From assembly GCF_056746865.1 (NCBI RefSeq), contig NZ_CM163382.1: a stretch of DNA of 64,000 bases. The stretch is one strand, 5' to 3'. The notes below the pieces were generated by a model. The model worked only from the letters and a program-made list of their open reading frames with translations, was not told the origin of the DNA and did no database searches. This document shows positions 15,483 to 36,949 of this stretch, in pieces (the stretch's first letter is position 1; the number at the start of each line of letters is the position of its first letter). The translations under genes and the position numbers were made by a program.

Positions 15483-15486
<4 letters not shown>

Positions 15487-16133: not shown

Positions 16134-16810
16134 GGTTCCTCCTTGCTGAGCCACGGCCCCTGATTGACGGTGCGTTCCCCAAACAACCATTGCTGACGAT
16201 TTAAAGGAACATCCCGGCGGCGCAATATTTTGCTCGCGACCAGGCCGTCGTGCTCCCCTTCCCACCAGCATTCATCCTGAAGTTTCGGGAGTGCGATTTT
16301 CAGGTCGTGGAAATGCTCCTGATACTGGTGATATGCGTTACGTAAAACATCAGACGCGTTGCCTTCAAGCAGTAACGGCGCAAGTGGTAATGCCAGCGGA
16401 TGACTTTTTCGCCCCAGATAAAGCGGAAAAACTGGATGGCGTAAACCGCCCTGCAACTGTTCGAGGCTGTAAGGCGCATCGGCTGTTGTTGCCACCGCCA
16501 CCATCCACCAGGCGTCGGTGTAGTAGTCGCGCCGGGAGATAATCGCGCTCAGAAGATCAGGGTCGCTCAACTCTTCGCGACGGCTGAAATAACGCGCTTT
16601 ACGCACCTCTTTTGGCATCTGGATTGTGTGATAATCCCGTGCCCAGCGCGGGTTACGGCTGGCGCAAACCACCAGTGAATAGTGGCGGTTAAACACGTTT
16701 AATCGTTCGGTATCATCACGCCGAATCCCTACCCCGGCAGCCAGCAGCCCCAGCAATGCTGAGCGCGAAGGCAGTTCATGGGTATGACGCACTTCGCCCG
16801 CTCCAAACAA
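16115..16810 (-). pseudogene. cas5: cas5e/casD remnant lacking about 20-25 N-terminal codons; fused to island att core
   Basis: Cas5e-like body (...LPSRSALLGLLAAGVGIRRDD..., ...LYLGRKSHPLALPL...) but the frame opens with only a TTG 3 codons after a stop, and the first codons overlap the 15-bp att repeat. Confidence 0.8.
16792..16806. repeat. att core direct repeat (left copy), CTTCGCCCGCTCCAA
   Basis: Identical 15-mer recurs at 36704-36718; matches the acceptor-stem/CCA end of a tRNA. Confidence 0.6.
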
Positions 16811-16969
16811 ACATTTCTCAACGTCTACTGAAGTCCATCAAATCCACGAATATCAAGCCTTTCAGCCATTTTCATAGCTTATTAACGTCTACTCACAACT
16901 ACCAGAATCTACACACAGAAGTGTATAGTAATGCGTATAGGACAAAATTTATTTTTTGGAGCTATACAC

Positions 16970-18184
16970 ATGCTGCTTTCAGACCTTGCTATCAGGCGCG
17001 CGAAGCCGAAAGAAAAGGCTTATACACTCAATGACGGTAACGGGCTTTCGTTACTCATTGAGCCGAACGGCTCGAAAGGGTGGCGACTACGTTACAGATT
17101 TGCAGGAAAGCCCAAAATGTTGTCGTTGGGCGTGTACCCTGATGTGTCTCTGTCTGATGCCAGAGCGGCAAGGGATGAGGCTAAAAGGCTTCTTGCTGGT
17201 GGTATAAATCCAAGTGAGGCCAGAAAAGCTCAAAAGCGAGAACAGGCGAGCAAATTTGGCAATACTTTTGAGGGTATCGCTCGCGAATGGTATGAAAAGC
17301 GGATCGACAGGTGGTCATCGTCATACGCCGAGGAAATGATCGAGACGTTTGAAAAAGACGTTTTTCCGTACATTGGCGGCAGGCCGATCGCAGAAATTAA
17401 GCCAATGGAGTTGCTTGCGGTTCTCTCCCGTCTTAATGACCGTGGGGCGACCGAAAAATTGCGTAAGGTTCGCCAGCGATGCGGCGAGGTGTTCCGGTAC
17501 GCAATCATCACCGGACGCGCTGAATATAACCCCGCACCAGATCTGGCAAGCGCATTTGCTCCACACAAAAAAGAGCATTATGCCTATTTGAAGGCCGACG
17601 AACTGCCGGAATTTTTCCGCGTTCTTAATACGTACACCGGAAGCCAGATCGTCAAGCTGGGTATGCGATTATTGATTCTGACAGGGCTCCGGCCAGGGGA
17701 ATTACGACAGGCAGAATGGCAGGAGATCGATTTTGATAATCGTTTGTGGGAAGTGCCTAAAGAACGAATGAAGATGCGCCGTCCTCATTGTGTGCCGCTT
17801 TCAGAACAGGCGATCGCTATTCTGGAACAGTTAAAACACATGACGGGGCAGTATCAGTTTATTTTCCCTGGTCGAATCCAGCACAGTAAGCCGATGAGTG
17901 AAATGGCGATGAACGTGCTTATTCGTCGTATTGGCTATTCTGGGCGCGTTACTGGTCATGGGTTCCGGCACACGATGAGCACGATTTTACATGAGCAGGG
18001 CTATAACACCGCGTGGATAGAAACGCAGCTTGCACACGTTGATAAGAACTCAATTCGTGGCACGTACAATCATGCGCAATATCTGGACGGGCGGCGCGAG
18101 ATGCTCCAGTGGTACGCCGACTATATGGACTCACTGGAACAGGGCGGCAACGTGGTGCATGGCAAGTTCGGAAAATGTGGATGA
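16970..18184 (+). CDS. int: Tyrosine recombinase, P4-type integrase
   Basis: ORF 16931..18184; start taken at MLLSDLAIRRAKPKEKAYTLNDGNGLSLLIEPNGSKGWRLRY... (ATG 16970); C-terminal catalytic region with HGFRHT and Y. Confidence 0.93.
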   Translation: MLLSDLAIRRAKPKEKAYTLNDGNGLSLLIEPNGSKGWRLRYRFAGKPKMLSLGVYPDVSLSDARAARDEAKRLLAGGINPSEARKAQKREQASKFGNTFEGIAREWYEKRIDRWSSSYAEEMIETFEKDVFPYIGGRPIAEIKPMELLAVLSRLNDRGATEKLRKVRQRCGEVFRYAIITGRAEYNPAPDLASAFAPHKKEHYAYLKADELPEFFRVLNTYTGSQIVKLGMRLLILTGLRPGELRQAEWQEIDFDNRLWEVPKERMKMRRPHCVPLSEQAIAILEQLKHMTGQYQFIFPGRIQHSKPMSEMAMNVLIRRIGYSGRVTGHGFRHTMSTILHEQGYNTAWIETQLAHVDKNSIRGTYNHAQYLDGRREMLQWYADYMDSLEQGGNVVHGKFGKCG

Positions 18185-18312
18185 CTGGTTGAGTATACAG
18201 TAGTAGACTTTGAGCGACGAAAGAAAAAGCTGTGTCTAGGGTCGCTCCCGAAAAACCGTATACCTCGACGGGCTGGCACAGCCACTACAGTAGAGGACGC
18301 TGAGGTGTGCGT

Positions 18313-19110
18313 ATGATTGATATTCATGCCGAATTAAACGAATACAAAAAAGATTTTATTTCTTTACGTGAATTTCTTGAGGTCGTGCTTAAGGTCGCTG
18401 GTGATGATTATGATGTTTCAGATCTCATAACTTGGATACTCAGGAGAATAAGCGGAGAACATATCCGCCTGTACACAGTAAATGAATTTAAGCTGTTGGA
18501 ATCTTTTTGTAACCCGTATCGGGATGAATTTGATTATGATGTTCTTTATAGAAATCTGGATGCGGTTCGGAAACATGGTTGTTTACCTGGTGAGAGGGAT
18601 GAAAATGGTTTTCTGGTGTCCGGTTATTGGGAAGATCCCGAATTTGAGAACATTGGATTTATAAGGGGTGAAATTTTCGCAATTTTTCCCGATGTCCTTG
18701 ACGCGTTAACGAAGCTGGAAGGCGCTAACTCTTCTGAAAATGACGAGGTACAAGGACGCGATATTGAAAAGAAAGAGTTGCGTACAGAGGATGATTTATT
18801 ATCCCAAATCGCAATGCTGGAAAGAGAAAACGCAGAGTTAAGGGCAAGGATAGAGCAGTTAGAGCAAGAGCGCCCGATACACTTATATAAATACTGGGAT
18901 AAAGACCCATTAGCTAAGGCTATTGAGATTAGAAACAGAGAGTGGGCCAATTACGATCCAGAAAATGATTTTGCCACCAGGGGAAATCAAGAAGCGATAA
19001 CTAGGGAGCTTAAGCAGTGGGGGGCAAGTAATGCTCTTGCAACGCTCATAGAGAGGACTGCCTGCCCTATTAACCGAGACAACAGCCAAAAGAACGCAAA
19101 GCCGGATTAA
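18313..19110 (+). CDS. Hypothetical protein (265 aa) with acidic coiled-coil segment
   Basis: ORF 18307..19110; ATG 18313; coiled-coil-like stretch LLSQIAMLERENAELRARIEQLEQER; no family recognised by eye. Confidence 0.55.
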   Translation: MIDIHAELNEYKKDFISLREFLEVVLKVAGDDYDVSDLITWILRRISGEHIRLYTVNEFKLLESFCNPYRDEFDYDVLYRNLDAVRKHGCLPGERDENGFLVSGYWEDPEFENIGFIRGEIFAIFPDVLDALTKLEGANSSENDEVQGRDIEKKELRTEDDLLSQIAMLERENAELRARIEQLEQERPIHLYKYWDKDPLAKAIEIRNREWANYDPENDFATRGNQEAITRELKQWGASNALATLIERTACPINRDNSQKNAKPD

Positions 19111-19126
19111 CGCACCATACCGCATA

Positions 19127-19275
19127 CCCTGAGGGTGATTTACTGTTACCCTGAGGGTATTTTTTTATCTTCCCCGTCAATTTTACCATCACCCTTAGGG
19201 TAGATTTCCTCCCGATTACCATCACCCTTAGGGTTAATTTCCTTCCGGTAACCATTAGGCCTGAGGGTATGAAAA
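19127..19275. repeat. Five copies of an 11-bp near-palindromic motif ACCCT(G/T)AGGGT upstream of alpA
   Basis: taccctgagggtg, taccctgagggta, cacccttagggtag, cacccttagggtta, gcctgagggtatg within about 150 bp. Confidence 0.55.
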
Positions 19276-19337: not shown

Positions 19338-19535
19338 ATGTCAAATACGCTTATTCGTTTAACAGAAGTTCAGCGTAGAACTGGATATAGCAAGGCATGG
19401 ATTTATCGCCTTATGGGGCAAGGTAAATTTCCTGCATCAGTTAAAATTGGCTCGCGAGCGATTGCTTTCGTTGAAAGTGAAATTGACGAATGGATCAATC
19501 AGCGTATTGCCGAATCACGCGGAACGGCTGCCTGA
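19338..19535 (+). CDS. alpA: AlpA-family phage transcriptional regulator/excisionase
   Basis: 65 aa MSNTLIRLTEVQRRTGYSKAWIYRLMGQGKFPASVKIGSRAIAFVESEIDEWI, classic AlpA HTH. Confidence 0.85.
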   Translation: MSNTLIRLTEVQRRTGYSKAWIYRLMGQGKFPASVKIGSRAIAFVESEIDEWINQRIAESRGTAA

Positions 19536-19610: not shown

Positions 19611-20435
19611 ATGAAACTGCGAAAAACGCCCGTACAGGGGCAGGGCTTTGTTCGGCCTGAAAACCAGAATCTGCAAAATTTCGGCGAAATTATCCCGGTT
19701 ATTTCCGGCGTTATTGGCGGGCGTGAAGCCGCTGTTGTTAGCGCAAAAGCGTTACACAAAGCGTTGGGCGTGGGAAAAGACTTCTCTACATGGATCACTG
19801 ATCGTATCTCTGAATATGACTTCACCATTGGGTACGATTACTCAGTCCATAAAACAATTTCCCCAAATTTGGGGAAAAGCCCGAATGGCGAGGCTTACAG
19901 CAAGATTAAGCACTCTGGCAGACCCGGTAAAGACTATCTGTTAAGTGTCGGAATGGCGAAAGAACTGGCAATGATCGAACGCACCGAACAGGGCCGCGCC
20001 GTTCGTCAGTACTTCATCAAATGCGAGGAGGAGCTACACAAGGTAGCGCCTGTACGTTCCGCAGCGTTACGCCGGGAACTGAAAGCCCGTATCACCGTAG
20101 CCAGCTACTTTAAGCCAATGTGTGCCGCGCTGGAGGCGTACCGGGCTGAACTGGGTAAAAACACGCTCCAGCACCACTACACCACGGAAGCCAATATGCT
20201 GGCGCGTATCGTGCTGGGTGGCATGAATGCAAAACAGTGGGCGCAGGCGAACGGCATCACAGGCGAACCACGCGACCACATGAGCACGCTGCAGCTTGAG
20301 CACCTTTCTTACCTTGAGCAGAGCAATATCACGCTGATTGAGTTAGGCCAGGACTACCACCAGCGGAAAGCTGAATTAATTCGTCTTTCGCAACGCTGGT
20401 TAGCCCGCCGCATGGAGGTGAGCAGCCATGCGTAA
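19611..20435 (+). CDS. Phage antirepressor (AntA/KilAC-type)
   Basis: 274 aa; sequence resembles prophage antirepressor proteins; part of int-alpA-ant module. Confidence 0.65.
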   Translation: MKLRKTPVQGQGFVRPENQNLQNFGEIIPVISGVIGGREAAVVSAKALHKALGVGKDFSTWITDRISEYDFTIGYDYSVHKTISPNLGKSPNGEAYSKIKHSGRPGKDYLLSVGMAKELAMIERTEQGRAVRQYFIKCEEELHKVAPVRSAALRRELKARITVASYFKPMCAALEAYRAELGKNTLQHHYTTEANMLARIVLGGMNAKQWAQANGITGEPRDHMSTLQLEHLSYLEQSNITLIELGQDYHQRKAELIRLSQRWLARRMEVSSHA

Positions 20436-20985
20436 ACCTGTCTTTTATGCCGGTCGCACTGAAATCTCTGTCATTAAATTCGATGACATTCAGGTGCGCA
20501 TAGTGAGTATCAACGGCGAGCCGTGGTTTGTTGGCGCTGATGTGTGTGCCGCGCTGGAAATCAGCAATGTTACTGATGCCGTTTCAGTTCTGGATAACGA
20601 TGAGGTAATGACCCTAGCTTTAACCGAGGGTCATTCCGGTAAGCGTGGTGGTGCCAGAAGCTGGAATGTTGTCTCTGAATCAGGTTTCTACAAACTGATC
20701 GCCCGCAGCCGTAAAGCTTCCACACCAGGCACATTTGCGCACCGTTTCAGTAACTGGGTATTCCGCGAGGTGATTCCTTCAATCCGCAAAACGGGGGGTT
20801 ATGGTGTTCCGTTTGCCATGCTGAATGATTTCAGTAAACGTCAGGCTGCATATCAACAGGAAGCCAGCAAACGCGGTTACAGGTTACAGCAATGCAAAGA
20901 GGCAAAAGATGCACTGGAACGAGAAGAGCGGGCGCTATGGCGTAAATATCAGCCTGATTTTCTGGAGGGTGAAAGCAATGTGTAA
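20428..20985 (+). CDS. Bro-N domain protein (prophage antirepressor-like)
   Basis: 185 aa; N-terminal IRIVSINGEPWFVGADVCAALEISN is the Bro-N signature. Confidence 0.75.
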   Translation: MRKPVFYAGRTEISVIKFDDIQVRIVSINGEPWFVGADVCAALEISNVTDAVSVLDNDEVMTLALTEGHSGKRGGARSWNVVSESGFYKLIARSRKASTPGTFAHRFSNWVFREVIPSIRKTGGYGVPFAMLNDFSKRQAAYQQEASKRGYRLQQCKEAKDALEREERALWRKYQPDFLEGESNV

Positions 20986-21153: not shown

Positions 21154-21351
21154 CTATTCCTGCTCTTTAGCATCGCCATACTGCGATGTTTTCCAGGTAT
21201 GCGATTCCATTTTTGTGCGCCTGTACTCTTTTAAGAACTTCTCAAGGACAAACGCACATGGCGCAAATCTTTCCTGTTCTTGTTCGCTTACCGCATTTTT
21301 GCGTTGTTTTTTCCTGGATGAGGATAATTTCTTTAATGATTTGTCAGTCAT
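21154..21351 (-). CDS. Small basic protein (65 aa), paralog-like partner of 21409..21606
   Basis: ORF on strand opposite to neighbours; both small ORFs end ...AKEQE and share a duplicated 3' DNA segment. Confidence 0.35.
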   Translation of the reverse strand: MTDKSLKKLSSSRKKQRKNAVSEQEQERFAPCAFVLEKFLKEYRRTKMESHTWKTSQYGDAKEQE

Positions 21352-21408
21352 CGTAGATACCTGTAACCCTGTGCGCCACAGTTCACCGCACCACGGCGCT
21401 GGTGATGG

Positions 21409-21606
21409 TTACTCCTGCTCTTTGGCCTTCCGGCGCTGTTCATATTTTAATTTGCGTCCACAGGCATCTAAGACCCATGCGGAAAAATTAGCACTAGGAT
21501 TAGTTAATTTTTCTTGTTCAACACTGGCATCAATCCCATCTATAAGCTCGTGCGGGAATCGAATATTTTTCTTTGCTGATTTGTTGTTTGTGTTTCCGCT
21601 AGACAT
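21409..21606 (-). CDS. Small ribbon-helix-helix-like DNA-binding protein (65 aa)
   Basis: NIRFPHELIDGIDASVEQEK...FSAWVLDA resembles Arc/CopG RHH pattern. Confidence 0.4.
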   Translation of the reverse strand: MSSGNTNNKSAKKNIRFPHELIDGIDASVEQEKLTNPSANFSAWVLDACGRKLKYEQRRKAKEQE

Positions 21607-21810
21607 TGGTACACCTCACTTAAATGGATTTGATGGGCGCACACAATACAGCAAAAAAAGTGAGAAGTTAAGTATTGACATGTGCGCACACATGATTTTA
21701 ATCTGTGCGCAAGTTTGGGTTGCATTGCTCAAATTAAGCAACGCCCCGCAGTGCTCGCAACACATGCAGGGCGTCTAACCACCAACGATAGAAAGCGTAT
21801 CGAGGTAGCT

Positions 21811-22014
21811 ATGTTAAATCATACCACACACCCGCAAGGGCGGGACTCGCACAACCTGAATAAATACATCTGGCGTTTTATCGCCCTGAGCACCGCACAA
21901 CCACGCGTAATACACATCGAGGCCGCCAGCGAACAGGAAGCCCGTCAGCAATCCCCGGCTGGCTGCGTGATGGTATTTACTGCCCGCATCCGTCAGGGGG
22001 AATACTATGCGTGA
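21811..22014 (+). CDS. Small hypothetical island protein (67 aa)
   Basis: ATG 21811 after GAGG; MLNHTTHPQGRDSHNLNKYIWRFIALSTAQ... Confidence 0.4.
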   Translation: MLNHTTHPQGRDSHNLNKYIWRFIALSTAQPRVIHIEAASEQEARQQSPAGCVMVFTARIRQGEYYA

Positions 22015-22264
22015 TGAACGATTTATTCTTCTGGAGCAAAAATTCAGTGAAGCGCCAAAAAATGAAATTGATGCTCTTTTGCATATCGCGAATATGCTAA
22101 AAGTAGCAACGTTCCTTATAGTTTCGAATCTGGAGCATGAAACGGCGTTAGATATACTGAACAGTGCTGTCGATTATTCTGAATATATTGCCGAGGATAA
22201 ATACAGGCAATTACCAGATTTGTTAGCCCATAAATATAAAGAAGAACCTCACACCGGGAAATAA
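22007..22264 (+). CDS. Hypothetical protein (85 aa)
   Basis: ORF in operon-like series upstream of primase gene. Confidence 0.45.
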   Translation: MRDERFILLEQKFSEAPKNEIDALLHIANMLKVATFLIVSNLEHETALDILNSAVDYSEYIAEDKYRQLPDLLAHKYKEEPHTGK

Positions 22265-22266
22265 AC

Positions 22267-22569
22267 ATGAAGAAGATTAAATTTACTGGCTTAAATGCCA
22301 GCGGACAGACTCACCCGAAAATCAGGATCGGGGATATTTTCCGGGATAAATATGGTGACAGCGTGGTTATTAATTCCGTGTATGAACGGCACATTACATA
22401 CCGCCGCGCAGGGTACGACTATGACTGTGTGATGCCCGTTCATCAGTTCCGGCGTGATTTTTCACTGGTATGTGCAGCACCACGCAGTAAGCCCACCAGT
22501 AAAGAGAAAGCACGGGCAAATATTCAGGTAATAAAGAACATGATTAACGCATTCAGGGGCAAGAAATGA
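22267..22569 (+). CDS. Hypothetical protein (100 aa)
   Basis: ORF overlapping primase start; tight spacing with neighbours. Confidence 0.45.
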   Translation: MKKIKFTGLNASGQTHPKIRIGDIFRDKYGDSVVINSVYERHITYRRAGYDYDCVMPVHQFRRDFSLVCAAPRSKPTSKEKARANIQVIKNMINAFRGKK

Positions 22570-24692: not shown

Positions 24693-24715
24693 CTTCCCTG
24701 TGTGAGGTAAAAAGT

Positions 24716-24845
24716 TGCGGGTTATGCGGGTTATCCTGTGCATAAGTTAATTAACTGAATGATTAAAAAGGAAATTAATAACCCGCACGTAACCCGCAAA
24801 ACGGCAGTTATAACCCGCAAATGTGCGATTGTAACCCGCAAAATT
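24716..24845. repeat. Iteron cluster 1 (putative replication origin): convergent copies of TTGCGGGTTAT / ATAACCCGCAA
   Basis: gttgcgggttatgcgggttat then aataacccgcacgtaacccgcaaaacggcagttataacccgcaaatgtgcgattgtaacccgcaaa. Confidence 0.7.
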
Positions 24846-24902
24846 TCACTGTAAGAGTGTAAACAAGCGTAACTATCACGTTAAAACCGGAGAACAAACA
24901 GC

Positions 24903-25328
24903 ATGACGGCGCAAATATCAGCTTACGGGCGGCTGGTGGCTGACCCGCAGTTAAAGACCACCAGCAAGGGCACACAAATGGCGATGGCGAGTATGGCGGT
25001 CCCCCTTCCATGCAATCAGACAGATGACGGAACGGCGACGATGTGGTTATCCGTCCTGGCGTTTGGCAGACAGGCTGACGCACTGGCAAAACACCACAAA
25101 GGCGAACTGGTGAGCGTGGCCGGTAACATGCAGGTGAGCTGGTGGACGGGCCAGAACGGCGAAACGAGGCAGGGATGGCAGGTTATCGCAGACAGCGTAA
25201 TCAGTGCGCGAACGGCGCGACCGGGCGGCAAAAAAGGCCAGCAGGGGCAGGCTACTGATGCACTGAACAGGGCAAAGCAACAGACAGGCCAGCACGATGA
25301 TCCGTACGGGGACGGGATACCGTTTTAA
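24903..25328 (+). CDS. Single-stranded DNA-binding protein-like (OB-fold)
   Basis: 141 aa; pattern GRLVADPQLKTT...WLSVLAFGRQADALAKHHKGELVSVAGNMQVSWW...GETRQGWQV resembles SSB OB-fold core; Gly/Gln-rich tail ending DDPYGDGIPF like the SSB acidic tip. Confidence 0.55.
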   Translation: MTAQISAYGRLVADPQLKTTSKGTQMAMASMAVPLPCNQTDDGTATMWLSVLAFGRQADALAKHHKGELVSVAGNMQVSWWTGQNGETRQGWQVIADSVISARTARPGGKKGQQGQATDALNRAKQQTGQHDDPYGDGIPF

Positions 25329-25411
25329 TTCACAACAGCGAACAGAGTAATTACCCAGTGCGCCGTAAAGCCCCGTCCTTCAGGTCGGGGATATAAGGCG
25401 CGGTTTTCCAC

Positions 25412-25828: not shown

Positions 25829-25850
25829 AGGCCAAAGTATAATTTGGCAT

Positions 25851-27389: not shown

Positions 27390-27596
27390 GTGAATTGTAT
27401 TAACGACCTGAACACAGGCGATGTCAGAGGTGGTTCCGTTCATCTGGATGCACAGACCGTGATGCGCCTTAAGCAGTACAGAATCGACCATGTGAACAAT
27501 CACCCTGATCAGCCATTACCAGGCGTGGCGCAGATTGTCAGACATGCCGTAAACGCCTGGCTTAATCAGAATGGTTTTGCATCGGGGGGTGAGTAA
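27390..27596 (+). CDS. Small protein (68 aa), first gene of the novel operon; possible regulator
   Basis: GTG start 27390 preceded by AAGAGG; no recognisable family. Confidence 0.45.
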   Translation: MNCINDLNTGDVRGGSVHLDAQTVMRLKQYRIDHVNNHPDQPLPGVAQIVRHAVNAWLNQNGFASGGE

Positions 27597-27692
27597 TGAA
27601 TCGCTGGTACAGCATCAAAGCAGAGGGACGCCAATGTTATCTAACTCAGGTTTTATGAATTCTGACTCCCGATTCAAAATAGGAGGTTACTA

Positions 27693-30224
27693 ATGCCAGT
27701 CGTACCAACAGTATCCGGACGTCAGGTTGAGAGCCGTGGAGTTCAGTCAGCAGGCTTGCAGACGTTTTCTCAGCCAGGTATTGGTGATGCTTTTGTTCGG
27801 GCAGGGGCAGAGGCAATTGATGTTTTTGGTCAGGCAAAACAGCGTGCCAATATTGCCTTGATTCAGGAGGCATCCCTTAAACTCAGTCAGATAGGCAGTG
27901 ATCTGCTGAATAATCCTGAAACAGGATTGCTTAACCTGAAAGGGAAAAATGCTATTGGAAAAGGCCATGAGTATACACAGCAGTTTGATGCTCAGATCGA
28001 ACAACTGGCTATGTCGCTGCCGGATGAACAGGCTCGTAATGCTTTCATGCAGCAGGCGCAGCAGCAGCGTATTCAGTTCGCTACGCAGGCCGGGAGGTAC
28101 GAGATAGGGCAAATAAATGCCTACGAAGAAGGCCAGTTTCAGGCGACACTGCTGAATAATGGTAAAAATGCCTCAGCATTATATGGCGACAACGCAGCAT
28201 ACATATTGGCTAATACGCAAACTTTCCAGCAAATTGAGGATTACGGTATTGCGCATGGCTGGAGCGACGAGCAAATCCAGGCCAAGAAAATCGAGTTTAA
28301 AGAAGCAACAGCAAAAGCAACTGCTCAAAATGCTATTGGAGCAAACTATCTTCAGGTAAGACAGCAAAATGGCGAGTTAAGCGATACTGCTGCTGGATCT
28401 CGCCGTGCTGTAGCAGATAGTGGCTCTTCCGATCGTACCCGCGGTATACGCAACAATAACCCCGGCAATCTTGAATACAGCAAAACTAATCCGTGGATTG
28501 GGCAGACTGGTGATGATGGTCGCTTTGCCAAATTCGAAACCCCTGAACACGGTATTCGCGCGCTTGGTCGCAATTTGCTGTCGTATCAGCGTCAGGGTTA
28601 TGACACCATCAGCGAAATAATTAATCGCTGGGCACCGGCCAGTGATGATAATAAAACTGATGCTTATATACGGGCAGTATGTGCTCAGCTCGGTGTAACT
28701 CCTGACCAGCCGCTTGACGCATCAAATCCTGACACACTGAAATCTCTGTGCAAAGCAATTATTCATCATGAGCAAGGCAGTCAGCCGTACAGTGATCAGC
28801 AATTGGCCGCTGGCGTTAGTGCCGCACTGGGGCTTTCTCAGCTACCGACAAAAAATAAACGTTATACCGGTGTAGCCTGGTTCGATGCTTTAAGTGAATC
28901 AGATCAGGCCAGCGTGTTGCGACAGACGGATGCATTAGCCAGACAGCAGCAGGCTGAATATAGAACGATGCTCGAAAGCCGGGTTCGCGATGCAACGGCT
29001 GCGTATATGCGTGGCGTTGAATTTCCTAACCCGCCTGGTGAGGGTGAGTTCATTGCTGCTTATGGTGTCAGAGAAGGAAACCTGCGATATACCGAGTTCA
29101 GAAATTTGCAGATCGCCGGACAGTATATAGGCTCTTTCCGCAACATGCCGACAAGCAGCATTACCGCATATGTTGAGCAATTACGCCCGGATACTGGTGA
29201 GACAGGGGAGGGGTATGCGTCTCGTGCGGAGTTATTCGACCGGGTATCGGCGGCAGCCACGAAGGTAATAACCCAGAGGCAGAATAATCCGTTTAGTGCA
29301 GCGGTGGAAATCGGAGCCTATAAGCCGATCACCAGCAACAACCCTGACGACATCACTGCCGAGGTGGCTAACCGTTTCTCGTCGCAGGAAAGCTTACGCG
29401 CGTTGGGAATTAATGCCCCACTCCTCAACAGTGAAGAGGCGGCTGCGCTGGCACAGCAGGTGCGCGGCACTCAGAACGTTGACCAGACAATTAAACTGTT
29501 GCAGAGCATGGGGGAGAAGCTGCCTGCGCCAGCAATACGGCAGGTGGCATCTGTAATTGCTCCGAACAGTGCGGCAACAGCCTATTCTGCGCTGCTGCTG
29601 GGCACGCCGGATAACCAGTACGACAACACCAGGCCGACGATCCCATATAGTCAGTTCATCGGGTATAAGCCGACGATGAACAAGTACGACGTTGCAAAGG
29701 TTATTCTTTCCGGCGACCAACTACTGAATCCGACGAAGGCCATGAAGAATGCGGGCATAACTCCGGTACAGTTGCCGAGCGAAGATAAGATGAAAGACGC
29801 TTTCGACGAACAGGTAGGTAATGCATTTGCCCGTAACCCGCAGTTACGCCAGATCAGTTATAGCCTTTTCAAAGCCGCTTACGCAGGAATAGCTTATCAA
29901 TCTGGTGATGCCTCTACGGTAAGAACCAGTATGCCTGATACAGACATTGTAGCTGATGCCGTGAAGTATGCTACTGGCGGTATATACAATGGTTTTAATG
30001 GCGGCGACGTTGTAATGCCTTTTGGCATGGATAAATCTACTTTCAAAGATCGCTATACCACATCTGCGAAACAAGCACTGAAAGATGCCGGACTTAACGT
30101 AAATGCAGTGTCAAATTTCACGCCAGTTAATATCGGCAATAACCGGTATCGGCTTGTAAATGGTAGCGGACGCTGGGCAACAGATCCCAGAACCAATAAA
30201 GCTATTGTCGTGAGGGTTGAATAA
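27693..30224 (+). CDS. Large hypothetical protein P1 (843 aa), Q/A-rich, conserved-looking block RNNNPGNLEY...
   Basis: Strong RBS AGGAGG before ATG 27693; stop overlaps next start (TAATG). Confidence 0.8.
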   Translation: MPVVPTVSGRQVESRGVQSAGLQTFSQPGIGDAFVRAGAEAIDVFGQAKQRANIALIQEASLKLSQIGSDLLNNPETGLLNLKGKNAIGKGHEYTQQFDAQIEQLAMSLPDEQARNAFMQQAQQQRIQFATQAGRYEIGQINAYEEGQFQATLLNNGKNASALYGDNAAYILANTQTFQQIEDYGIAHGWSDEQIQAKKIEFKEATAKATAQNAIGANYLQVRQQNGELSDTAAGSRRAVADSGSSDRTRGIRNNNPGNLEYSKTNPWIGQTGDDGRFAKFETPEHGIRALGRNLLSYQRQGYDTISEIINRWAPASDDNKTDAYIRAVCAQLGVTPDQPLDASNPDTLKSLCKAIIHHEQGSQPYSDQQLAAGVSAALGLSQLPTKNKRYTGVAWFDALSESDQASVLRQTDALARQQQAEYRTMLESRVRDATAAYMRGVEFPNPPGEGEFIAAYGVREGNLRYTEFRNLQIAGQYIGSFRNMPTSSITAYVEQLRPDTGETGEGYASRAELFDRVSAAATKVITQRQNNPFSAAVEIGAYKPITSNNPDDITAEVANRFSSQESLRALGINAPLLNSEEAAALAQQVRGTQNVDQTIKLLQSMGEKLPAPAIRQVASVIAPNSAATAYSALLLGTPDNQYDNTRPTIPYSQFIGYKPTMNKYDVAKVILSGDQLLNPTKAMKNAGITPVQLPSEDKMKDAFDEQVGNAFARNPQLRQISYSLFKAAYAGIAYQSGDASTVRTSMPDTDIVADAVKYATGGIYNGFNGGDVVMPFGMDKSTFKDRYTTSAKQALKDAGLNVNAVSNFTPVNIGNNRYRLVNGSGRWATDPRTNKAIVVRVE

Positions 30225-32284
30225 TGTCTGATGTTTTTTCTTTGGCTCCAGAAGGTCAGGCATGGATTGACGACAAAACAGTTGCCAACCCAGCAAGGCC
30301 AGAAGACTACGATCCGACTCCCTTCCAGGGTTCAGGTACTGCACTTTTGAGCGGCGTGGCGGAGGGGGCTCTCGGTCTCGCGCAGTCTGCCGTCGGATTC
30401 AGCAAGCGTCTGATTAGCGATCCGGCATTTACCGCAGACGTGGCACCGACAGTTAATATTTTTCGGGAGATGTTCCCTGATGCTGACAAAACACTGAATG
30501 ATACATACGACACGATCGGAAAACAGTTACAGGATGCCCGCAGCTATGTGAAGCCTGATGCAGGCAGCCAGGGAATGGCGGCTGAGGTATTAAATGAGCT
30601 TGGTAAATTTGTTCCTGCAATCGGAACAACTATGTTTGGTGGTCCGCTCATCGGCGCTGCTACAGCCTTCAGTTCTACGTATGAGCAGTCCTATCAGGAT
30701 TTTAAAGGGAAGGGAGTAGACGAGGCTACAGCGCGTAACCTGGCAACGCAGCAGAGCCTTTTCAATGCTGTGGGTATGGCCTTACCCGCTGCCGTCGGCA
30801 CCACACTGGCAACGCGCATTGCCTCAGGTGTGGCAATCAACACCGGATTCGGTGGACTGAACCGTTACTCAGTAGGCGCAACACTGGAGGAAAAAGGCTA
30901 CACGGAGATGGCAAAACAGTATCGGGTATTTGACGGTCAGGCGATGTTAGTCGATGCCGTTTTAGGCGGGGTCTTTGGTGGCGTTCATCACCTGACTACC
31001 CATAATAACCATGATGGTACAGAGTCGAACATTTCTGCAGAAGAAATAAAATCAACTTTTGGTGAACATTATCAGCAATCTCCTGATGGTAACATTGAGT
31101 CAATGGTTCGTGATTTATCTGATTCAGGAGTAATAGAACTTATTAATGAACCAGCAATAAAAAATAGTGATGGAGAAATACTTCTGAATAAAGGTCATGT
31201 GACAGTAGCTTCCGGAAAAGAACCAATAATAAGAATAAATATTAATGGATTAAAAGACCATGAAGAACTGTTAGAAACCCTTCATCACGAGGCGCTTCAT
31301 CTTGAGCAGCGCCATTACCCTGACTGGAAGGCCAGAAAGCTAGCTAATGCTGTACTTAAATCTGCAAACAAGCATTCTGACTATCCTGAATTTGCATATG
31401 GGATGTCACAATATTATGAATATAAGAAAAGGGGTGAGTACCCTGAAACATATCCTGAGTGGTTGTACGCTGAAGAAGTTGCCGCACATGCAGTAAATCC
31501 ATCTCTAAAGACAAGCGTTTCATCATGGGAAAAAATTATTTCAGGTTTTAAAGCCTATATATTCAGATACAGTGGTATTCAGGTTGGAACCGTTACACCT
31601 GAGCAGTTACGGTTACTCGTAAGTATGCGTCTTCGCAATATGAAACTGGAAGCCGCAGTAGAAAAAGTTTTTGGTATCCGGGCGAGGGAAAGAATAAAAC
31701 CAAGCGATATTGATGCAGCCCACATTTTGAATGAGGGGCTTCATTACGATATTGAATCGTCACCAGTGCTTCATACCAGCAATGAGAGCATCAACAGCCA
31801 TGTTGACGCCATGGATGAAGCATACAGGCAACTTAATGATGGTCAGCCTGTAAATGTTGGGGGGATGGCGCGAGGGCTTGATGGTCCATTGCGATCAGAT
31901 ATATCTGATACTTACCAAGAGCAATACCATGAAATACAAAAGGTTTTTGAAGAAAATGGTGTCAGATACGAAACATCATCAGAGCCAATTAGTGAATCGC
32001 CTGTCCCTCGTGCTGAAAGTGCTTTCTCATCGGCTGGTGAACACAGAGGGGACATCAGCGTTGATCCAGATACAGGGCAGGTTCTCTCATCCAACAGCTA
32101 TGACCTTATGGCTGCCAGGGACATGGCTGTTGCCAATCCTGAGCTGACTATAGCTCACCCGGAAACCGGAAACCCGACAAAACTTTCTGATCTCCTGGCT
32201 GAGTTGGATGAACAGATTAAGACAGTCCAGAACGAATCGAAGGTTTATTCTGTAGCAGCAGCGTGCTTCTTGAGGAACCCATAA
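30224..32284 (+). CDS. Large hypothetical protein P2 (686 aa) with glycine-rich hydrophobic segments and an HExxH motif
   Basis: HEALH at nt 31286-31300; N-terminal third has repeated Gly/Ala-rich hydrophobic stretches; TAATG coupling at both ends. Confidence 0.8.
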   Translation: MSDVFSLAPEGQAWIDDKTVANPARPEDYDPTPFQGSGTALLSGVAEGALGLAQSAVGFSKRLISDPAFTADVAPTVNIFREMFPDADKTLNDTYDTIGKQLQDARSYVKPDAGSQGMAAEVLNELGKFVPAIGTTMFGGPLIGAATAFSSTYEQSYQDFKGKGVDEATARNLATQQSLFNAVGMALPAAVGTTLATRIASGVAINTGFGGLNRYSVGATLEEKGYTEMAKQYRVFDGQAMLVDAVLGGVFGGVHHLTTHNNHDGTESNISAEEIKSTFGEHYQQSPDGNIESMVRDLSDSGVIELINEPAIKNSDGEILLNKGHVTVASGKEPIIRININGLKDHEELLETLHHEALHLEQRHYPDWKARKLANAVLKSANKHSDYPEFAYGMSQYYEYKKRGEYPETYPEWLYAEEVAAHAVNPSLKTSVSSWEKIISGFKAYIFRYSGIQVGTVTPEQLRLLVSMRLRNMKLEAAVEKVFGIRARERIKPSDIDAAHILNEGLHYDIESSPVLHTSNESINSHVDAMDEAYRQLNDGQPVNVGGMARGLDGPLRSDISDTYQEQYHEIQKVFEENGVRYETSSEPISESPVPRAESAFSSAGEHRGDISVDPDTGQVLSSNSYDLMAARDMAVANPELTIAHPETGNPTKLSDLLAELDEQIKTVQNESKVYSVAAACFLRNP

Positions 32285-35040
32285 TGAAACAGGCATGTGT
32301 GGAAGCTATTGCGCAGACACTTGGTCGCCAGCCAAAGGCTGATGAGCTGAAAAATATTGAAGATCGTATCAAAGAAGCTGTGCAGCATGTGCACAGAAAG
32401 AATGCCAAAGAAGGCAAAAGTGGTATTCCTGATGCTCAAACATACATGGATGCAGCAGAACTGGTACGCCAGCGTGTGGTTCATGATGTGTACAAGAAAA
32501 GACAGCGTGTTGCCCAGAATGCGATCGCCATCAGTAAAATTACTGACACTCTCGATGCTAACATCCCGCCTGATCAGCAGACACCTGTTAATTTGCAGCA
32601 GTTTATTTTTGCTGGCCGACGATCGAGAGACAAAGCTGATATCTCCGTTACTTCTGCTGAAGAACTTGCAATTGGGGCATATCAGGACTGGTCCCGTCAG
32701 CTCAGTGCTGAACTTCTAAAAGCAGGTGATGACGTCCGCAAATTCTTCGAGCAGAGCAGGGCGCTTGGAGAGCAGCGGTTTCGGAGTGTATTCGACAGGC
32801 AGGCGGCAAAGTCTGCACAACTCCAGATCCTGAAAGAAATATATGGCGAAGATACCGGGAATCCCCTGGCGAAGAAAATTGCACAGATTTGGAAGGATGT
32901 AACAGGCCGTGTTCGTCATGAGATGAACGACAATGGCTTTGACATAGGCCTGCGAGAAGACTGGCATACGCCATATGTGGATGATGCTGACCTTATTCGC
33001 AATGCCGGGCGCGAAGAATGGCTGGCATCGTTACCAGTGGCAGAGCAAGCTACAGCACGTCTTTCAGGTCGCCAGCCACCGATTGAGTTTGCCCGCCAGA
33101 AATGGGTTGATGACGCTTACAACACGCAGGATCGCAGCAATTACGTTAATCCTGACGGCAGCATTATGAATGACGTCGAGTACCGTCAGGCACTGGAAGC
33201 GATCTTTGAAACGAAGGCCACTGATGGGGCAAACAAAATTGAGCCTGGTACATTTATGGGAGCCGGAGGAATAAAGAGCCGTGGTTCTCAGCACAGGGTG
33301 ATGGCGTTCAAGGATGCGCAGTCACACTTCGCCTATATGGAACGATACACTCAGCAGCCGCTGGTGGGGGTGATGATGTCGCACCTGCAATCATCATCCA
33401 GGGATTTGGGCGTCGTTAAAGCCTTTGGTCCGGACGCCGAAAGAAACTTTTCCCTGGTACTGGATCGCATCTATAAGCGCGCAGTAACAGGCGGGAAACG
33501 CAAAAAAGAAATGGAGGATGAGGCCAAATTAGTTGCCCGTATGTTCAACTCAATGGCTGGCCTAAATGGTGTCGCTTCATCGAGTGTGTTCTCTTCAGCA
33601 GTTGGTGGTCTGCGTAACCTGATGACCAGCGCCATGCTTGGCACCAGCGTACTGACAGCAACCAGCGACCAGGCAATTATGCGGGCAAATGCGCAGGCGC
33701 TGGGCTTTACCCGTGGTGGAATGCGGCTTTCCGTTAACACTATCAAAAACCTGTTTAGTGGAGATGCCAAAAAGGCGAATGCTGAACTCGGTCTGCTGGT
33801 GGATTCACATGCTGCTGTGGTTTCGAAAATGGGCGGGTTTGACTTGTCTCGCGGCATAACTGGCTGGTTCGCAGAGAAGACACTGAAGTGGTCCGGGCTG
33901 ATCGCTATGGACCGCGCAAACAAAGCGTCGTTTGGTCTCCTGATGTACAAAAACATTGGCGAGCTGACCAGAAAATTTAAGACGCTGGACGATATGAAAG
34001 GAACCGATAAAACCATTCTGGCTAACAAGGGATGGAGCAATGAGGACTGGGCCATCATGGCAGCGGCAGAACTCAGGCCGATGACTACTGCCGGGCATAT
34101 GGGGATGACGCCAGACGCGATTTACGCTGTGCCCGATAACGTAATAGCCGACATTATGGCAGACCGTATTACCCGGATTCGTGCCGGGAGTGAAAAGGCA
34201 CTGGCAGCCCTTGGAGATCTCCCTCCAGAACGCCTGAAACGGATGAAAGAAGCATTCGACGCTGAGGCTGAGCAGACCATCACGCGCATGATTCGTAATG
34301 CACGCGCTGAAGCAGCCCAGAAATTGCTGGGAATTACGCACGGTGAGATGACCAATGCTGTGACCACCGCTACGGGTATTGATACATATGCCCGTGATGA
34401 TGCTGGCGAGTTAATGAAGAGCTTCATGCTCTTCAAAACAACCCCATTTGCTGGATTTCGGCAACTTGTTAACAGAACACGGGATTTGGACACCGTTCCG
34501 GCCATTAAATTTCTGGCCTCATATATCGGGGGAACAACTCTTGCTGGTATGTTTGCGATCCAGATGAACAGTTTGTTAAATGGTAATGATCCGCTGGATA
34601 TGACAAAACCAACCACATGGGTTCAGGCTTTACTGAAAGGTGGTTCGTTCGGTATCTACGGTGATTTTATTTTCCAGGACCATACGCAATATGGCTCCAG
34701 CATCGGTGCCACTATGGGTGGCCCTGTGTTGAGCTTTGCAGAGCAGTTAACAAAATTACTGATTACTAACCCACAGAAGGCTCTACAGGGTGAAGAAACA
34801 TCATTCGGTGCCGATGCACTGAAAACAGCCCGCATGATCACCCCATTCGCAAACCTGTGGTATGCGAAAGCGATAACCAATCACCTGATATTGCAACAAC
34901 TTCAGGAGATGGCAAACCCTGGTTACAATGATCGAGTAAGGGACCGCGCGCAACGGGAGTTCGACATAACGAGTTGGTGGGAACCGGGTGCTATTGCGCC
35001 ACGTAGAGCACCGGATTTTGGAAAGGCGGTGGGGAACTGA
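32284..35040 (+). CDS. Large hypothetical protein P3 (918 aa)
   Basis: ORF 32263..35040; start taken at MKQACVEAIAQ (ATG 32284 overlapping P2 stop); Gly-rich hydrophobic segments toward C-terminus. Confidence 0.8.
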   Translation: MKQACVEAIAQTLGRQPKADELKNIEDRIKEAVQHVHRKNAKEGKSGIPDAQTYMDAAELVRQRVVHDVYKKRQRVAQNAIAISKITDTLDANIPPDQQTPVNLQQFIFAGRRSRDKADISVTSAEELAIGAYQDWSRQLSAELLKAGDDVRKFFEQSRALGEQRFRSVFDRQAAKSAQLQILKEIYGEDTGNPLAKKIAQIWKDVTGRVRHEMNDNGFDIGLREDWHTPYVDDADLIRNAGREEWLASLPVAEQATARLSGRQPPIEFARQKWVDDAYNTQDRSNYVNPDGSIMNDVEYRQALEAIFETKATDGANKIEPGTFMGAGGIKSRGSQHRVMAFKDAQSHFAYMERYTQQPLVGVMMSHLQSSSRDLGVVKAFGPDAERNFSLVLDRIYKRAVTGGKRKKEMEDEAKLVARMFNSMAGLNGVASSSVFSSAVGGLRNLMTSAMLGTSVLTATSDQAIMRANAQALGFTRGGMRLSVNTIKNLFSGDAKKANAELGLLVDSHAAVVSKMGGFDLSRGITGWFAEKTLKWSGLIAMDRANKASFGLLMYKNIGELTRKFKTLDDMKGTDKTILANKGWSNEDWAIMAAAELRPMTTAGHMGMTPDAIYAVPDNVIADIMADRITRIRAGSEKALAALGDLPPERLKRMKEAFDAEAEQTITRMIRNARAEAAQKLLGITHGEMTNAVTTATGIDTYARDDAGELMKSFMLFKTTPFAGFRQLVNRTRDLDTVPAIKFLASYIGGTTLAGMFAIQMNSLLNGNDPLDMTKPTTWVQALLKGGSFGIYGDFIFQDHTQYGSSIGATMGGPVLSFAEQLTKLLITNPQKALQGEETSFGADALKTARMITPFANLWYAKAITNHLILQQLQEMANPGYNDRVRDRAQREFDITSWWEPGAIAPRRAPDFGKAVGN

Positions 35041-35354
35041 TGACGAGAGATAAAATTGAATATATTGCTTCTCTTAAATATGAAGCTGAGAAATGGAGAA
35101 GGATTGGCGGGTGGGGAACATTAATATCACTCTCTGCTTTACTTATAGACTCCTGGTTCAGACATATTGATGCAGCATCATTACTTTTTGAATCAGCAGT
35201 ACTTGGTGGATTCATTTGCTGTTGGGGTGGTAATTATGATCGGGCGTCCAAACATAAGAGAGAACTTGACGCGATATGTTTTGCTTTATTCGGTAAGGAT
35301 TACGAAAGTTCTGACCTTGATATAATTGAATTCAACAAAACGGAACTATCGTGA
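35040..35354 (+). CDS. Small predicted membrane protein P4 (104 aa)
   Basis: ATGA overlap with P3 stop; two hydrophobic segments (GTLISLSALLIDSWF, AVLGGFICCWGG). Confidence 0.6.
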   Translation: MTRDKIEYIASLKYEAEKWRRIGGWGTLISLSALLIDSWFRHIDAASLLFESAVLGGFICCWGGNYDRASKHKRELDAICFALFGKDYESSDLDIIEFNKTELS

Positions 35355-35362
35355 CATGTCAC

Positions 35363-35388
35363 AGGCCGCTTTCGCGGCCTTGTTTTTA
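35363..35388 (+). terminator. Rho-independent terminator closing the P1-P4 operon
   Basis: aggccgctttcgcggcct followed by tgttttt, 9 bp after the P4 stop. Confidence 0.6.
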
Positions 35389-36054
35389 ACGAATGCCACC
35401 GCCGCCCGGGCGGGAATTCGCAGATAAAAAAGCACGCTGCACGGTTTTATTAATACTTATACCATTAGGATTGATCCTTCAATGGACAATCCTTCCATCG
35501 TGTGGCCAGCCATTCATATTCTTTGTCTTTTCTTCAGTATCGGCTTTGCATCTTCTACACCCTGAAAGATGTCGTTTTATGGTGTATCTGATGATTTATT
35601 CCCTAACAATAGATATTCGAAAAATTAATCAGTTAAAACAATTATTTGGATAATTTCAGGTAAAACTATCTTAATCTTCTGGTGGATCTCAATGCGTAGT
35701 GACGGTATCGGGATTAAGGGCGTGGATATTCGCGATATATGCCGCTACACCCCTCAACAGTAATAGATATGAGCTTTTCACGCTCTCCTTTCACTGCTGA
35801 GAACGGCAACAACGTGCCACAGGAACGCGCTGTAATCGATTCTGACGCACTTAATTGCGTTGGGTAATGGTTTTTGCCAGCCTGTGGGGGTAACTCTGTT
35901 TTATGAGGCTTTGGCTATAGTGCAAAAATACACTTTGTCTTGCCTCTCAATTTGATGAGACTGGAACGACAACAGGACAGACCACCAGCAACAGTTACCG
36001 TATTCAGCCGTTCTGTGGCACCAGTGGAACTATCAACCCCTGCTTTCAGCAATG

Positions 36055-36212
36055 TGTTTGCGGGTTATTTTGGGGCGTTTGCGGGTTATTTGGGATGTTT
36101 TGCGGGTTATGTGATGCTTGAATAATGAACAGTGTATTTTGCAACATATTGATACTAAAGAACAAAAAATAGTTAGCATACTAAGATAACCCGGTAACCC
36201 GCATAACCCGCA
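36055..36212. repeat. Iteron cluster 2: three direct TTGCGGGTTAT copies then three inverted ATAACCCGC copies
   Basis: Same 11-mer family as cluster 1 at 24716-24845, about 11.3 kb away. Confidence 0.65.
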
Positions 36213-36699
36213 CTGTTTTGTATATATATACGAAAAATTGCATTCAGGAGGGGGGGAGCGAAATCCCTACAATCCATTGCTTATGGGACCGCCCGCCTCG
36301 TCAAATTTTTACACCCGCGAAATAAAAAAATACTTCACGCTGGTGGGCATGATGCTGATATGGGAGGCTTCCATAACGCCACCATTCGGAACTATGCAAA
36401 TCTGCATAGAAAAGGGGATGCCTGATACAATACCCTCGCCCGATAAAATCACACCGATAAACTCATCTGCCACGAGTAGAAAGAGCGAACGAACCCGATA
36501 CGCAGTAATGCTTGTCGGGTACAGCTTTTTAAGGCGGCTGTAGATATCAGGCCATCCGTGATCATCCACCAGCGAGATAGCCGATAACGATGACGCATAA
36601 CCCTCAAGCGAGGGATAAATGTGTATAGAAATGTGTATAGAATTGATTTTAGAACTCGCAGGATTCGCGCTATTACTGGCCTTGTGTGATGTTGTATTG

Positions 36700-36717
36700 T
36701 TCCCTTCGCCCGCTCCA
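36700..36717. repeat. tRNA 3'-end remnant / right att repeat (TTCCCTTCGCCCGCTCCA)
   Basis: 18 nt consistent with T-arm/acceptor stem/CCA of tRNA-Gly (glyU-like) as I recall it; contains the 15-bp repeat shared with 16792-16806. No complete tRNA in the window. Confidence 0.55.
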
Positions 36718-36949
36718 ATTTATCTTCACCTCATCAACCTGCCATTTTTGTTGTATCTGATTTTCTATATTATCTTAATTCAATCGCTTCAGACTTTTCG
36801 CAATCGCCGTAATACTTCCCCATTTTTTTGTAAATAAAAGCGTTTACGCAATGCAATCCATTTGTAACAACCCAGGTAAAATACCTTATTTTCAAGTTGT
36901 TAAATAAGTGGTTATCTACGCTTTTAACAAACGATTGATGGAATCTTTT

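Follow-up and report, generated by a model that had tools for sequence, protein, structure and literature searches.

Phage satellites are known to exploit their helpers by redirecting packaging, resizing capsids, building capsids of their own or borrowing tails. Why would such an element carry genes for the proteins through which a podovirus delivers its DNA? This question is raised by a stretch of 64,000 nucleotides of Escherichia coli DNA (“the window”; contig NZ_CM163382.1 of RefSeq assembly GCF_056746865.1), in which positions 16792-36718 hold an integrase-bearing island of 19,927 bp, including an insertion sequence (IS) element of 1.7 kb. It is likely that this island is an E. coli satellite of the Gram-negative phage-inducible chromosomal island (PICI) type, and its injection genes may be used in helper particles.

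The initial annotation of the window had described a PICI-like satellite island rather than a prophage, which is supported by the zone plan of the element, a cos site and the lack of capsid, portal, terminase, tailspike and lysis genes. The genes it listed are all present (Table 1): an integrase, an open reading frame (ORF) of 265 amino acids (aa), alpA, two antirepressor genes, a DUF927 gene with iterons, a gene for a single-stranded-DNA-binding protein (SSB), an IS200/IS605 element and three large ORFs. Its statement that capsid, terminase and tail genes are missing holds for major capsid, portal, terminase, tailspike and lysis genes, but not for virion genes of DNA injection: the operon that had been left unassigned (27693-35040) in fact encodes homologues of gp15, gp16 and gp17 of phage epsilon15, as judged from PHROG matches and amino-acid identity.

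A Captured Injection Module in the Late Zone

In epsilon15-like phages (Uetakevirus), gp11, which resembles T7 tubular protein A, is followed by gp12, gp13 and gp14, the latter annotated in E. coli prophages as “virion core protein, T7 gp14 family”, and then by the block gp15-gp17. DNA homology between the island and epsilon15 extends exactly from the start codon of gp15 to the stop codon of gp17, and homology to Uetakevirus prophages sets in at ~27625, inside the end of gp14 and ~68 nt before gp15. On the other side, the 70 bp that follow the 104-aa ORF (35355-35424, terminator included) are 97-99% identical to phiV10-like phages. These edges delimit the captured block as 27625-35424; neither gp14 nor any other morphogenesis gene besides the trio was found in the island. 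Upstream of the block, the PICI backbone (27301-27628) matches, at 87-90% identity, the region ahead of a prohead protease/capsid fusion gene in small PICIs that carry this cos, and the spot of the 68-aa backbone ORF in related PICIs is likewise upstream of this fusion gene. The trio thus occupies the slot of the usual capsid module. Taken together, the homologies indicate that the three large ORFs are one captured segment of an epsilon15-like phage (Uetakevirus), which was later remodelled.

The gp15-like protein is a chimera, and the trio as a whole is mosaic with resident Uetakevirus prophages of E. coli. Residues 1-500 of gp15 share 93-98% identity with phiV10-type E. coli prophages (83% for aa 301-400), whereas residues 500-843 are of the epsilon15 type and only 16-37% identical to the phiV10 type. 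The first part includes a peptidoglycan-hydrolase domain (aa 248-403; PDB 9vvp_L, 5.5e-39, and 7q47, 2.3e-16). The gp16-like protein carries a central insert of ~250 aa (~aa 258-503; nt 30993-31693, GC content 0.385), which contains the motif HEALH, a possible HExxH signature of a zincin. This insert is island-specific, being absent from ~60 epsilon15-like phages in IMG/VR. A word-indexed search returned no homologues, and an exhaustive phmmer search against 1.84 billion representatives returned only an identical fragment of 74 aa, so that the insert is an orphan; its AlphaFold2 model, computed without an alignment, reached a predicted local distance difference test (pLDDT) score of 42. Nothing significant was returned by Pfam for the gp15-like and gp16-like proteins, no match by NCBIfam for the trio, nothing meaningful by a PDB sequence search for gp16 and gp17, and no strong transmembrane segments by a hydropathy scan of the three proteins.

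A genetic study by Guichard et al. in 2013 reportedly proposed that gp15-gp17 reside in the central tail tube of the virion. More recently, gp15 and gp17/16 were listed as components of the epsilon15 DNA-injection device (PMC12391199, 2025). Synteny and domain content mark the three proteins as predicted ejection or internal-core proteins and, with either placement, as parts of the DNA-delivery apparatus of the virion. This gives a function-relevant name to three large “hypothetical proteins” that are annotated in dozens of E. coli genomes.

Conservation, Distribution, and Mobile Relatives

A captured segment could simply be passive baggage with no present function, left behind when a large set of late genes was captured or when a PICI fused with a decayed epsilon15-like prophage. 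PICIs are reported to take up groups of helper late genes, most of which are lost afterwards (PMC10111431), and the start of the segment inside gp14 looks like an accidental recombination joint. Yet the ORFs of the trio (~7.3 kb) are intact in every copy examined, and the differences between islands are mostly synonymous. Four island copies were compared (window, MS 196-1, GF4, and XM), with the near-identical pair of the window and MS 196-1 (at most nine differences per gene) omitted from the ranges of the ratio of non-synonymous to synonymous substitution rates (dN/dS): 12-19 synonymous stand against 0-2 non-synonymous changes in gp16, and dN/dS is 0.07-0.28 for gp17 and 0.16-0.27 for gp15. 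The trio is under purifying selection within the island copies. It also lies exactly in the capsid-module slot, under the upstream region of the backbone and between two terminators, and it is kept in different contexts. The whole module occurs in 36 of 5,426 complete E. coli genomes and at two or more integration sites, namely at glyU and, with a different integrase, in the yicC/dinD interval; a scan for gp17 in one genome per species found only three loci, all of them true prophages. A second, diverged satellite backbone holds the trio as well. Passive baggage is hence a highly improbable account of these genes.

This second satellite lineage, whose primase, SSB and integrase have 61%, 68% and 80% identity to those of the window, carries the same trio without gp11-gp14, and its gp16 is of the unmodified epsilon15 type. 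One of its contigs, IMGVR_UViG_3300014936_000057 (L052/L083; 19,241 bp), is circularly permuted and has an attP: the right-end and left-end arms lie on either side of the attachment (att) core, and the contig ends overlap by 45 nt with two mismatches. Its att core differs by one change (CCCTTCACCCGCTCCAA), and its primase has a full length of 917 aa. The lineage has an extra, leftward AlpA gene with ~70% nucleotide identity to the AlpA regulator of phiV10-type phages.

A further relative, metagenome contig Ga0209547_100127 (L090), contains exactly the attP predicted for the integrase of the window; there, the left end with int (95% identical) adjoins the right end (90%). These contigs indicate that close relatives exist in attP form, either excised or concatemeric. 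L090 shares the integrase, the 265-aa ORF (98% identical) and AlpA with the window and differs in the replication module, where it encodes a primase/helicase of 470 aa. Its late zone (contig positions 372-6993) encodes a 680-aa tape-measure-like lytic transglycosylase, 71% identical to that of the Actinobacillus myovirus vB_Apl-pPE4, together with a 205-aa protein (85%), whose gene lies just upstream of the tape-measure gene in the phage and which is possibly a tail chaperone, and a split gp46-like gene (54-65% to the same phage). L090 is another example of DNA-delivery proteins among these satellites, which hints that their capture could be a wider habit.

A Satellite-Specified Delivery Device?

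How could a selected injection module serve a satellite? In the proposed mechanism, induction of a helper, or infection by it, would lead AlpA and the integrase to excise the element, which the DUF927 protein would replicate from the iterons. Element DNA would then be packaged into helper capsids, and in particles of the Uetakevirus type, gp15-gp17 of the satellite would replace those of the helper, with gp14 and everything else supplied by the helper. Incorporation of the trio into helper particles as a satellite-specific DNA-delivery device is the most likely role among those considered, with a probability that we place somewhat short of even. The purpose of such a device might be to enter cells that exclude the injection proteins of the helper, e.g., helper lysogens, or to deliver the orphan domain of gp16. 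In the wider form of this proposal, there would be a class of satellites that leave capsid size and tails alone and instead replace the genome-delivery device of their helper, and a gp16 with an orphan, possibly enzymatic HExxH domain would enter the recipient together with the DNA; this extension is rather doubtful.

The clues to the identity of the helper disagree. The late genes and the chimeric gp15 point to Uetakeviruses, as do the BRO-N homologues (41-49% identical) in many epsilon15-like phages and the phiV10-like AlpA gene of the second lineage. The cos site, in contrast, points to P27-family terminases, and the myovirus phiP27 would have no use for podovirus injection proteins. This disagreement weighs against a delivery device, and so do several further observations. 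A cos of the P27 type is absent from the epsilon15-like phages searched and from the second satellite lineage, and a comparison of the island with the terS regions of epsilon15-like phages for a pac-like match yielded only chance 13-14-mers. No near-identical trio was found in E. coli prophages of the 5,426 genomes, where the best reached ~78% nucleotide identity; the cognate donor or helper is thus either unsampled or long diverged. In favour of a link to Uetakeviruses, a second gp15-type locus, i.e., a Uetakevirus prophage, accompanies the island in ~8 of 28 island entries as compared with ~7% of all genomes, although this comparison ignores shared ancestry. The dN/dS of the trio against the phage copies is 0.04-0.15 with dS saturated, and part of this low ratio accrued before the capture. 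Finally, gp15-gp17 of epsilon15 may be either internal core proteins or proteins of the tail hub or tube.

Resident prophages offer candidates for one side of the exchange. In E. coli FDAARGOS_1303, a phiV10-type Uetakevirus prophage (L004, 24622-27741) shares the N-terminal half of gp15 and has a tailspike of the endosialidase type, which suggests specificity for the K1 capsule. Prophages of this kind are candidate helpers or recombination partners.

The mismatch between cos and late genes could also be read in another way, namely that the trio is a weapon. Expressed upon infection by, or induction of, a Uetakevirus, the altered proteins would enter its particles via the phiV10-type half of gp15 and render the progeny non-infectious, which would protect the population, and the real helper of the satellite with its P27-type cos, from a competitor. 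PICI-encoded immunity and interference are known. Defence by blocking of virion assembly is likewise known (PMC10884400). A weapon would fit with a cos that points to a helper of the P27/HK97 type unable to use these proteins, with an N-terminal half of gp15 that matches resident Uetakeviruses next to a remainder of the set that is only 16-37% identical, and with the foreign central insert of gp16. Conversely, all three proteins are conserved at full length, as working structural proteins rather than a minimal poison, gp16 of the second lineage is of the unmodified epsilon15 type, PADLOC gave no match, and island and Uetakevirus prophage co-occur more often than expected, not less. A weapon is accordingly an unlikely role, although it is the main rival to a delivery device.

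If the injection apparatus is indeed used in particles, the entry of DNA would be a further point of conflict between satellites and helpers, and the island would show how ejection proteins can be swapped in nature, with a new domain gained by one of the set. For satellites that bring their own delivery device, this could mean entry into cells that exclude the helper, or the conditioning of a new host.

Integration Site and Left Junction

The initial annotation had bounded an island of ~19.9 kb by 15-bp direct repeats, and these are borne out: CTTCGCCCGCTCCAA occurs exactly twice in the window, with both copies on the plus strand (16792-16806 and 36704-36718), and in 0 of 100 dinucleotide-preserving shuffles. 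The repeated sequence belongs to tRNA-Gly (glyU), of which it forms the 3′ end. The host of the window is E. coli, and the same island (99.6% identity) is found in E. coli SCU-105 directly after glyU, with actS (ygeR) on one side and a GH15 gene on the other, beyond which lies the ETT2 type III secretion island. There, attL and attR have a common core of 19 bp, TTCCCTTCGCCCGCTCCAA. A comparison with empty-site genomes, which had been proposed as a check on coincidental repeats, refutes coincidence: the reconstructed empty site (actS, tRNA-Gly, GH15 gene; 617 nt) is uninterrupted in 3,397 of the 5,426 genomes and 100% identical over 617 nt in strain 118UI and others, so that the repeats are true att remnants. 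The normal home of the island is the 3′ end of the tRNA-Gly gene glyU.

Next to the cores, two motifs with the conserved core AACGTCTACT (TTCTCAACGTCTACT and TTATTAACGTCTACT) on the integrase side, and two copies of AAATGTGTATAG on the other att arm, are putative arm-type sites of the integrase; both sets are kept beside the core in the attP contigs. To the right of attR, the window continues with the GH15 gene and ETT2. The GH15 gene (36908-38559) is read as two ORFs of 437 and 113 aa, as opposed to one gene of 536 aa in SCU-105, which may reflect a frameshift in this strain. Positions 36719-64000, with a GC content of 0.31-0.46, mostly <0.40, match ETT2 (sctC, gatekeeper, sctV, sctN, and others) according to the SCU-105 annotation.

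Although a real att remnant, the left repeat is no longer an intact attL, being joined to a truncated cas5e. Its length of only 15 bp is explained by the adjoining sequence on the left, which is cas5e rather than a tRNA gene, and ARAGORN found no tRNA in the 64-kb window; the canonical attL of SCU-105 is preceded by tRNA-Gly, and the tRNA-side part of the left core has here been replaced by cas5e. Positions 13000-16798 match the type I-E CRISPR-Cas locus of 118UI at 100% identity, with CRISPR array, cas2e, a cas1e pseudogene, cas6e and cas5e on the minus strand. The identity of cas5e, whose complete form in 118UI measures 747 bp, stops at 16798, and homology to the island starts at 16792, which leaves a 7-bp overlap, CTTCGCC (16792-16798). 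The CRISPR-Cas remnant itself spans 13111-16798 with the repeat CGGTTTATCCCCGCTGGCGCGGGGAACAC, and the cas1e pseudogene annotated in 118UI has an internal stop. The truncated gene is annotated as cas5e, which rules out cas7.

In SCU-105, the island (979.5 kb) and cas5e (1,135.9 kb) are on the same strand, and in 118UI, the cas flank and the empty attB are 136 kb apart and on opposite strands relative to the window. From these orientations, the junction in the window marks one end of a ~157-kb inversion, in which the 136 kb and the island are included, and a deletion between cas and glyU is ruled out. The breakpoint lies inside the 19-bp att core. Tyrosine recombinases usually have an overlap of 7 bp, as at the secondary att sites of lambda. 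Most likely, the inversion was made by the island integrase at a secondary site in cas5e (GACGCA-CTTCGCC-GGGGGC), as we infer from the junction sequence. The junction is absent from all 5,426 genomes of the collection. The reciprocal junction lies outside the window and is predicted to read GAGGGTTCGATTCCCTTCGCCGGGGGCATCGACGCCCC. The inversion parts cas2e, cas1e, cas6e and cas5e from cas7e, casB, casA and cas3, so that the Cascade operon is split, and glyU is predicted to lose its last 8 nt. Excision of this copy of the island is probably impaired, and the copy as a whole is probably crippled by the attL rearrangement together with the IS insertion. The left junction thus provides a concrete example of a satellite integrase that apparently rearranged the chromosome at a secondary site.

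Regulatory, Replication, and Packaging Features

The remaining zones are summarized in Table 1. Profile scans gave no significant family match for the ~265-aa protein, which contains a coiled-coil-like stretch. The direct repeats between its gene and alpA contain CCCTNAGGGT-like palindromes and may be operator or excision-control sites. In the Bro zone, AntA/AntB and BRO-N antirepressors are replaced by Rha and GIY-YIG variants in the relatives GF4 and XM, and no C4/isrK immunity RNAs were found with Rfam.

Iteron cluster 1, downstream of the DUF927 gene, is a putative ori, and the same iteron recurs 11.3 kb away in cluster 2. The IS200/IS605 element replaces 983 bp, in which an alignment with SCU-105 places a ProQ/FinO-family gene, a hypothetical gene and part of a PerC pseudogene. 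Near the right end, the 10-mer aligned to the annotated cohesive end of phiP27, a myovirus with a head of the HK97 type, reads CGCCCGCCTC (36290-36299) as compared with CGCCCGCCCC in the phage. The same cos sequence lies in E. coli prophages between genes for an HNH endonuclease and a small terminase (TerS) of the P27 family, and most of the other E. coli genomes have it at the end of a small PICI.

Table 1. Features of the island and its junctions, by position in the window.
Feature	Position	Strand	Evidence
cas5e (type I-E CRISPR-Cas), first 63 nt missing; left flank, outside the island	16115-16798	-	118UI cas locus
Left att remnant, 15 bp: 7-bp putative crossover CTTCGCC plus 8 bp of core identity (CGCTCCAA)	16792-16806	+	
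Motif pair with core AACGTCTACT, between att core and int	16815-16893	+	Repeat family D11
Tyrosine integrase, P4/CP4-57 type, 404 aa, reads inward	16970-18184	+	PHROG_1 7e-79; NCBIfam PRK09692 2.5e-98; SCU-105 annotation
int-alpA RNA motif (RF02996), between integrase gene and 265-aa ORF	18229-18296	+	Rfam 46.9 bits (gathering score 35.8)
Hypothetical protein, ~265 aa	18307-19110	+	
Direct repeats upstream of alpA, 2 x 17 nt and 2 x 33 nt	19125-19248	+	Repeat families D8, D2
AlpA-family excisionase and transcriptional regulator	19338-19535	+	PHROG_2790 and PHROG_66, ~2e-11
AntA/AntB antirepressor, Bro zone	19611-20435	+	PHROG anti-repressor families (zone: 2e-36, 5e-55)
BRO-N antirepressor, Bro zone	20428-20985	+	PHROG anti-repressor families (zone: 2e-36, 5e-55)
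Two small ORFs, 65 aa each, one of the YlcI/YnfO family	21154-21606	-	PHROG_21027, PHROG_949; SCU-105 annotation
Icd-like protein, 85-aa ORF, DUF4222 protein	21682-22569	+	NCBIfam phage_ICD_like 1.5e-18; PHROGs
DUF927 primase/helicase-type replication protein, 708 aa	22566-24692	+	Pfam DUF927 1.6e-46; PHROG_1139 DNA primase 4e-174
Iteron cluster 1, TGCGGGTTAT-type, with direct as well as inverted copies that flank an A+T-rich spacer	24707-24849	.	Repeat families D1, D3, D13, I3, I14, I16, I17
SSB	24903-25328	+	PHROG_44 1.7e-37
IS200/IS605 element	25355-27102	.	NCBIfam transpos_IS200 6e-43, guided_TnpB 8e-117
tnpA ORF of IS200/IS605	25412-25948	-	
tnpB of IS200/IS605	25851-27059	+	
Terminator-like hairpin before the late operon	27263-27284	+	
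68-aa PICI-backbone ORF	27390-27596	+	PHROG_4934
Captured phage segment, 7.8 kb: last ~68 nt of gp14-like gene, gp15, gp16, gp17, 104-aa ORF, terminator	27625-35424	+	
gp15-like virion protein, 843 aa	27693-30224	+	PHROG_992 4e-289, full length; 79% aa identity to epsilon15 gp15
gp16-like virion protein, 686 aa, ends epsilon15-type	30224-32284	+	PHROG_1145 2e-136, full length; 68% to epsilon15
gp17-like virion protein, 918 aa	32284-35040	+	PHROG_684 2.5e-295, full length; tblastn; 89% to epsilon15
104-aa ORF, one hydrophobic segment	35040-35354	+	Homologues (64-84% aa identity) after gp17 in some epsilon15-like phages
Rho-independent terminator-like hairpin at the end of the late operon	35362-35385	+	Conserved in phiV10-like phages
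Iteron cluster 2, three direct copies of TTTGCGGGTTAT plus inverted copies around an A+T-rich spacer	36057-36212	.	Repeat families D1, D4, I6, I9, I15, I18
cos-like site, P27/HK97 type	36247-36329	+	84.5% identity to annotated phiP27 cos region
AAATGTGTATAG, two copies	36617-36640	+	Repeat family D20
attR core, full 19-bp block TTCCCTTCGCCCGCTCCAA	36700-36718	+	Comparison with SCU-105 and empty site

Comparison With Known Systems

Gram-negative PICIs of the EcCICFT073 type were reportedly described by Fillol-Salom et al. in 2018. The plan of Gram-negative PICIs in four zones (Integration, Bro, Replication, and Late) and the usual position of their cos were described by Tommasini, Mageeney and Williams in 2023 (PMC10111431). 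The island shares with these elements a size of ~10-20 kb, att repeats with an empty site, an inward tyrosine integrase followed by AlpA with the int-alpA RNA motif, a variable Bro zone, a replication zone with primase/helicase, SSB and an iteron origin, a late zone with phage late genes but without a complete morphogenesis or lysis module, a cos-like sequence near attR, the lack of terS, and integration at the 3′ end of a tRNA gene. It differs in its late zone, which lacks both Rpp and any capsid-type gene and contains only the podophage trio and a small membrane ORF, and in that the cos-like sequence of the P27 type and the source of the late genes imply different kinds of helper.

An integrase beside a tRNA site and many hypothetical genes would also be expected of an element that is no satellite at all, i.e., a generic integrative or defence island, a P4-like element or a degraded prophage. 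The four-zone architecture, the cos, the iterons with a primase, and the attP forms speak against such an origin, as does the lack of capsid, portal, terminase and lysis genes and of any known defence system in a PADLOC analysis of seven island proteins. This alternative is extremely improbable. As for a Uetakevirus prophage, only the gp15-gp17 segment is common to the island and epsilon15/phiV10-like phages, the other ~45 genes of which (terminase, portal, capsid, gp11-gp14, tailspike, lysis, repressor) are missing. Of the genes that characterize capsid-forming PICIs (own major capsid, portal, head-tail adaptor, and small terminase), none was found in the island.

P4 encodes a primase-helicase that binds the iterons of ori and crr, follows an antirepressor logic, and makes proteins that alter the particles of its helper. 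The island resembles it in the P4-type integrase, the AlpA-like regulator, the primase-helicase with its iterons, the antirepressor logic, and the two separated iteron sites, which recall the arrangement of ori and crr. However, PHROG scans of the ORFs did not return the families Psu, Sid and Delta, the cos matches that of phiP27, not P2, and the helper proteins affected would be those of injection rather than of the capsid shell.

In the literature searched, no satellite was described as carrying ejection or internal virion proteins, and the selected, remodelled podophage injection module of the late zone is satellite cargo of which we found no description. Closely related in backbone are the small PICIs that bear this cos (E. 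coli 488 at abgR/smrA; ECONIH2 at clpS), which have YlcI, Icd-like and DUF4222 proteins, primase, SSB and the P27-type cos in common with the island, but encode a fusion of a ClpP-like prohead protease with the major capsid protein and a DUF1441 protein where the island encodes the trio. In the mode of acquisition, the island is comparable to elongated PICIs, which likewise captured a contiguous block of prophage late genes and retain nucleotide similarity to prophages; whereas their blocks are long clusters of lambdoid or P2 type, that of the island is a precise three-gene module of a Uetakevirus (PMC10111431).

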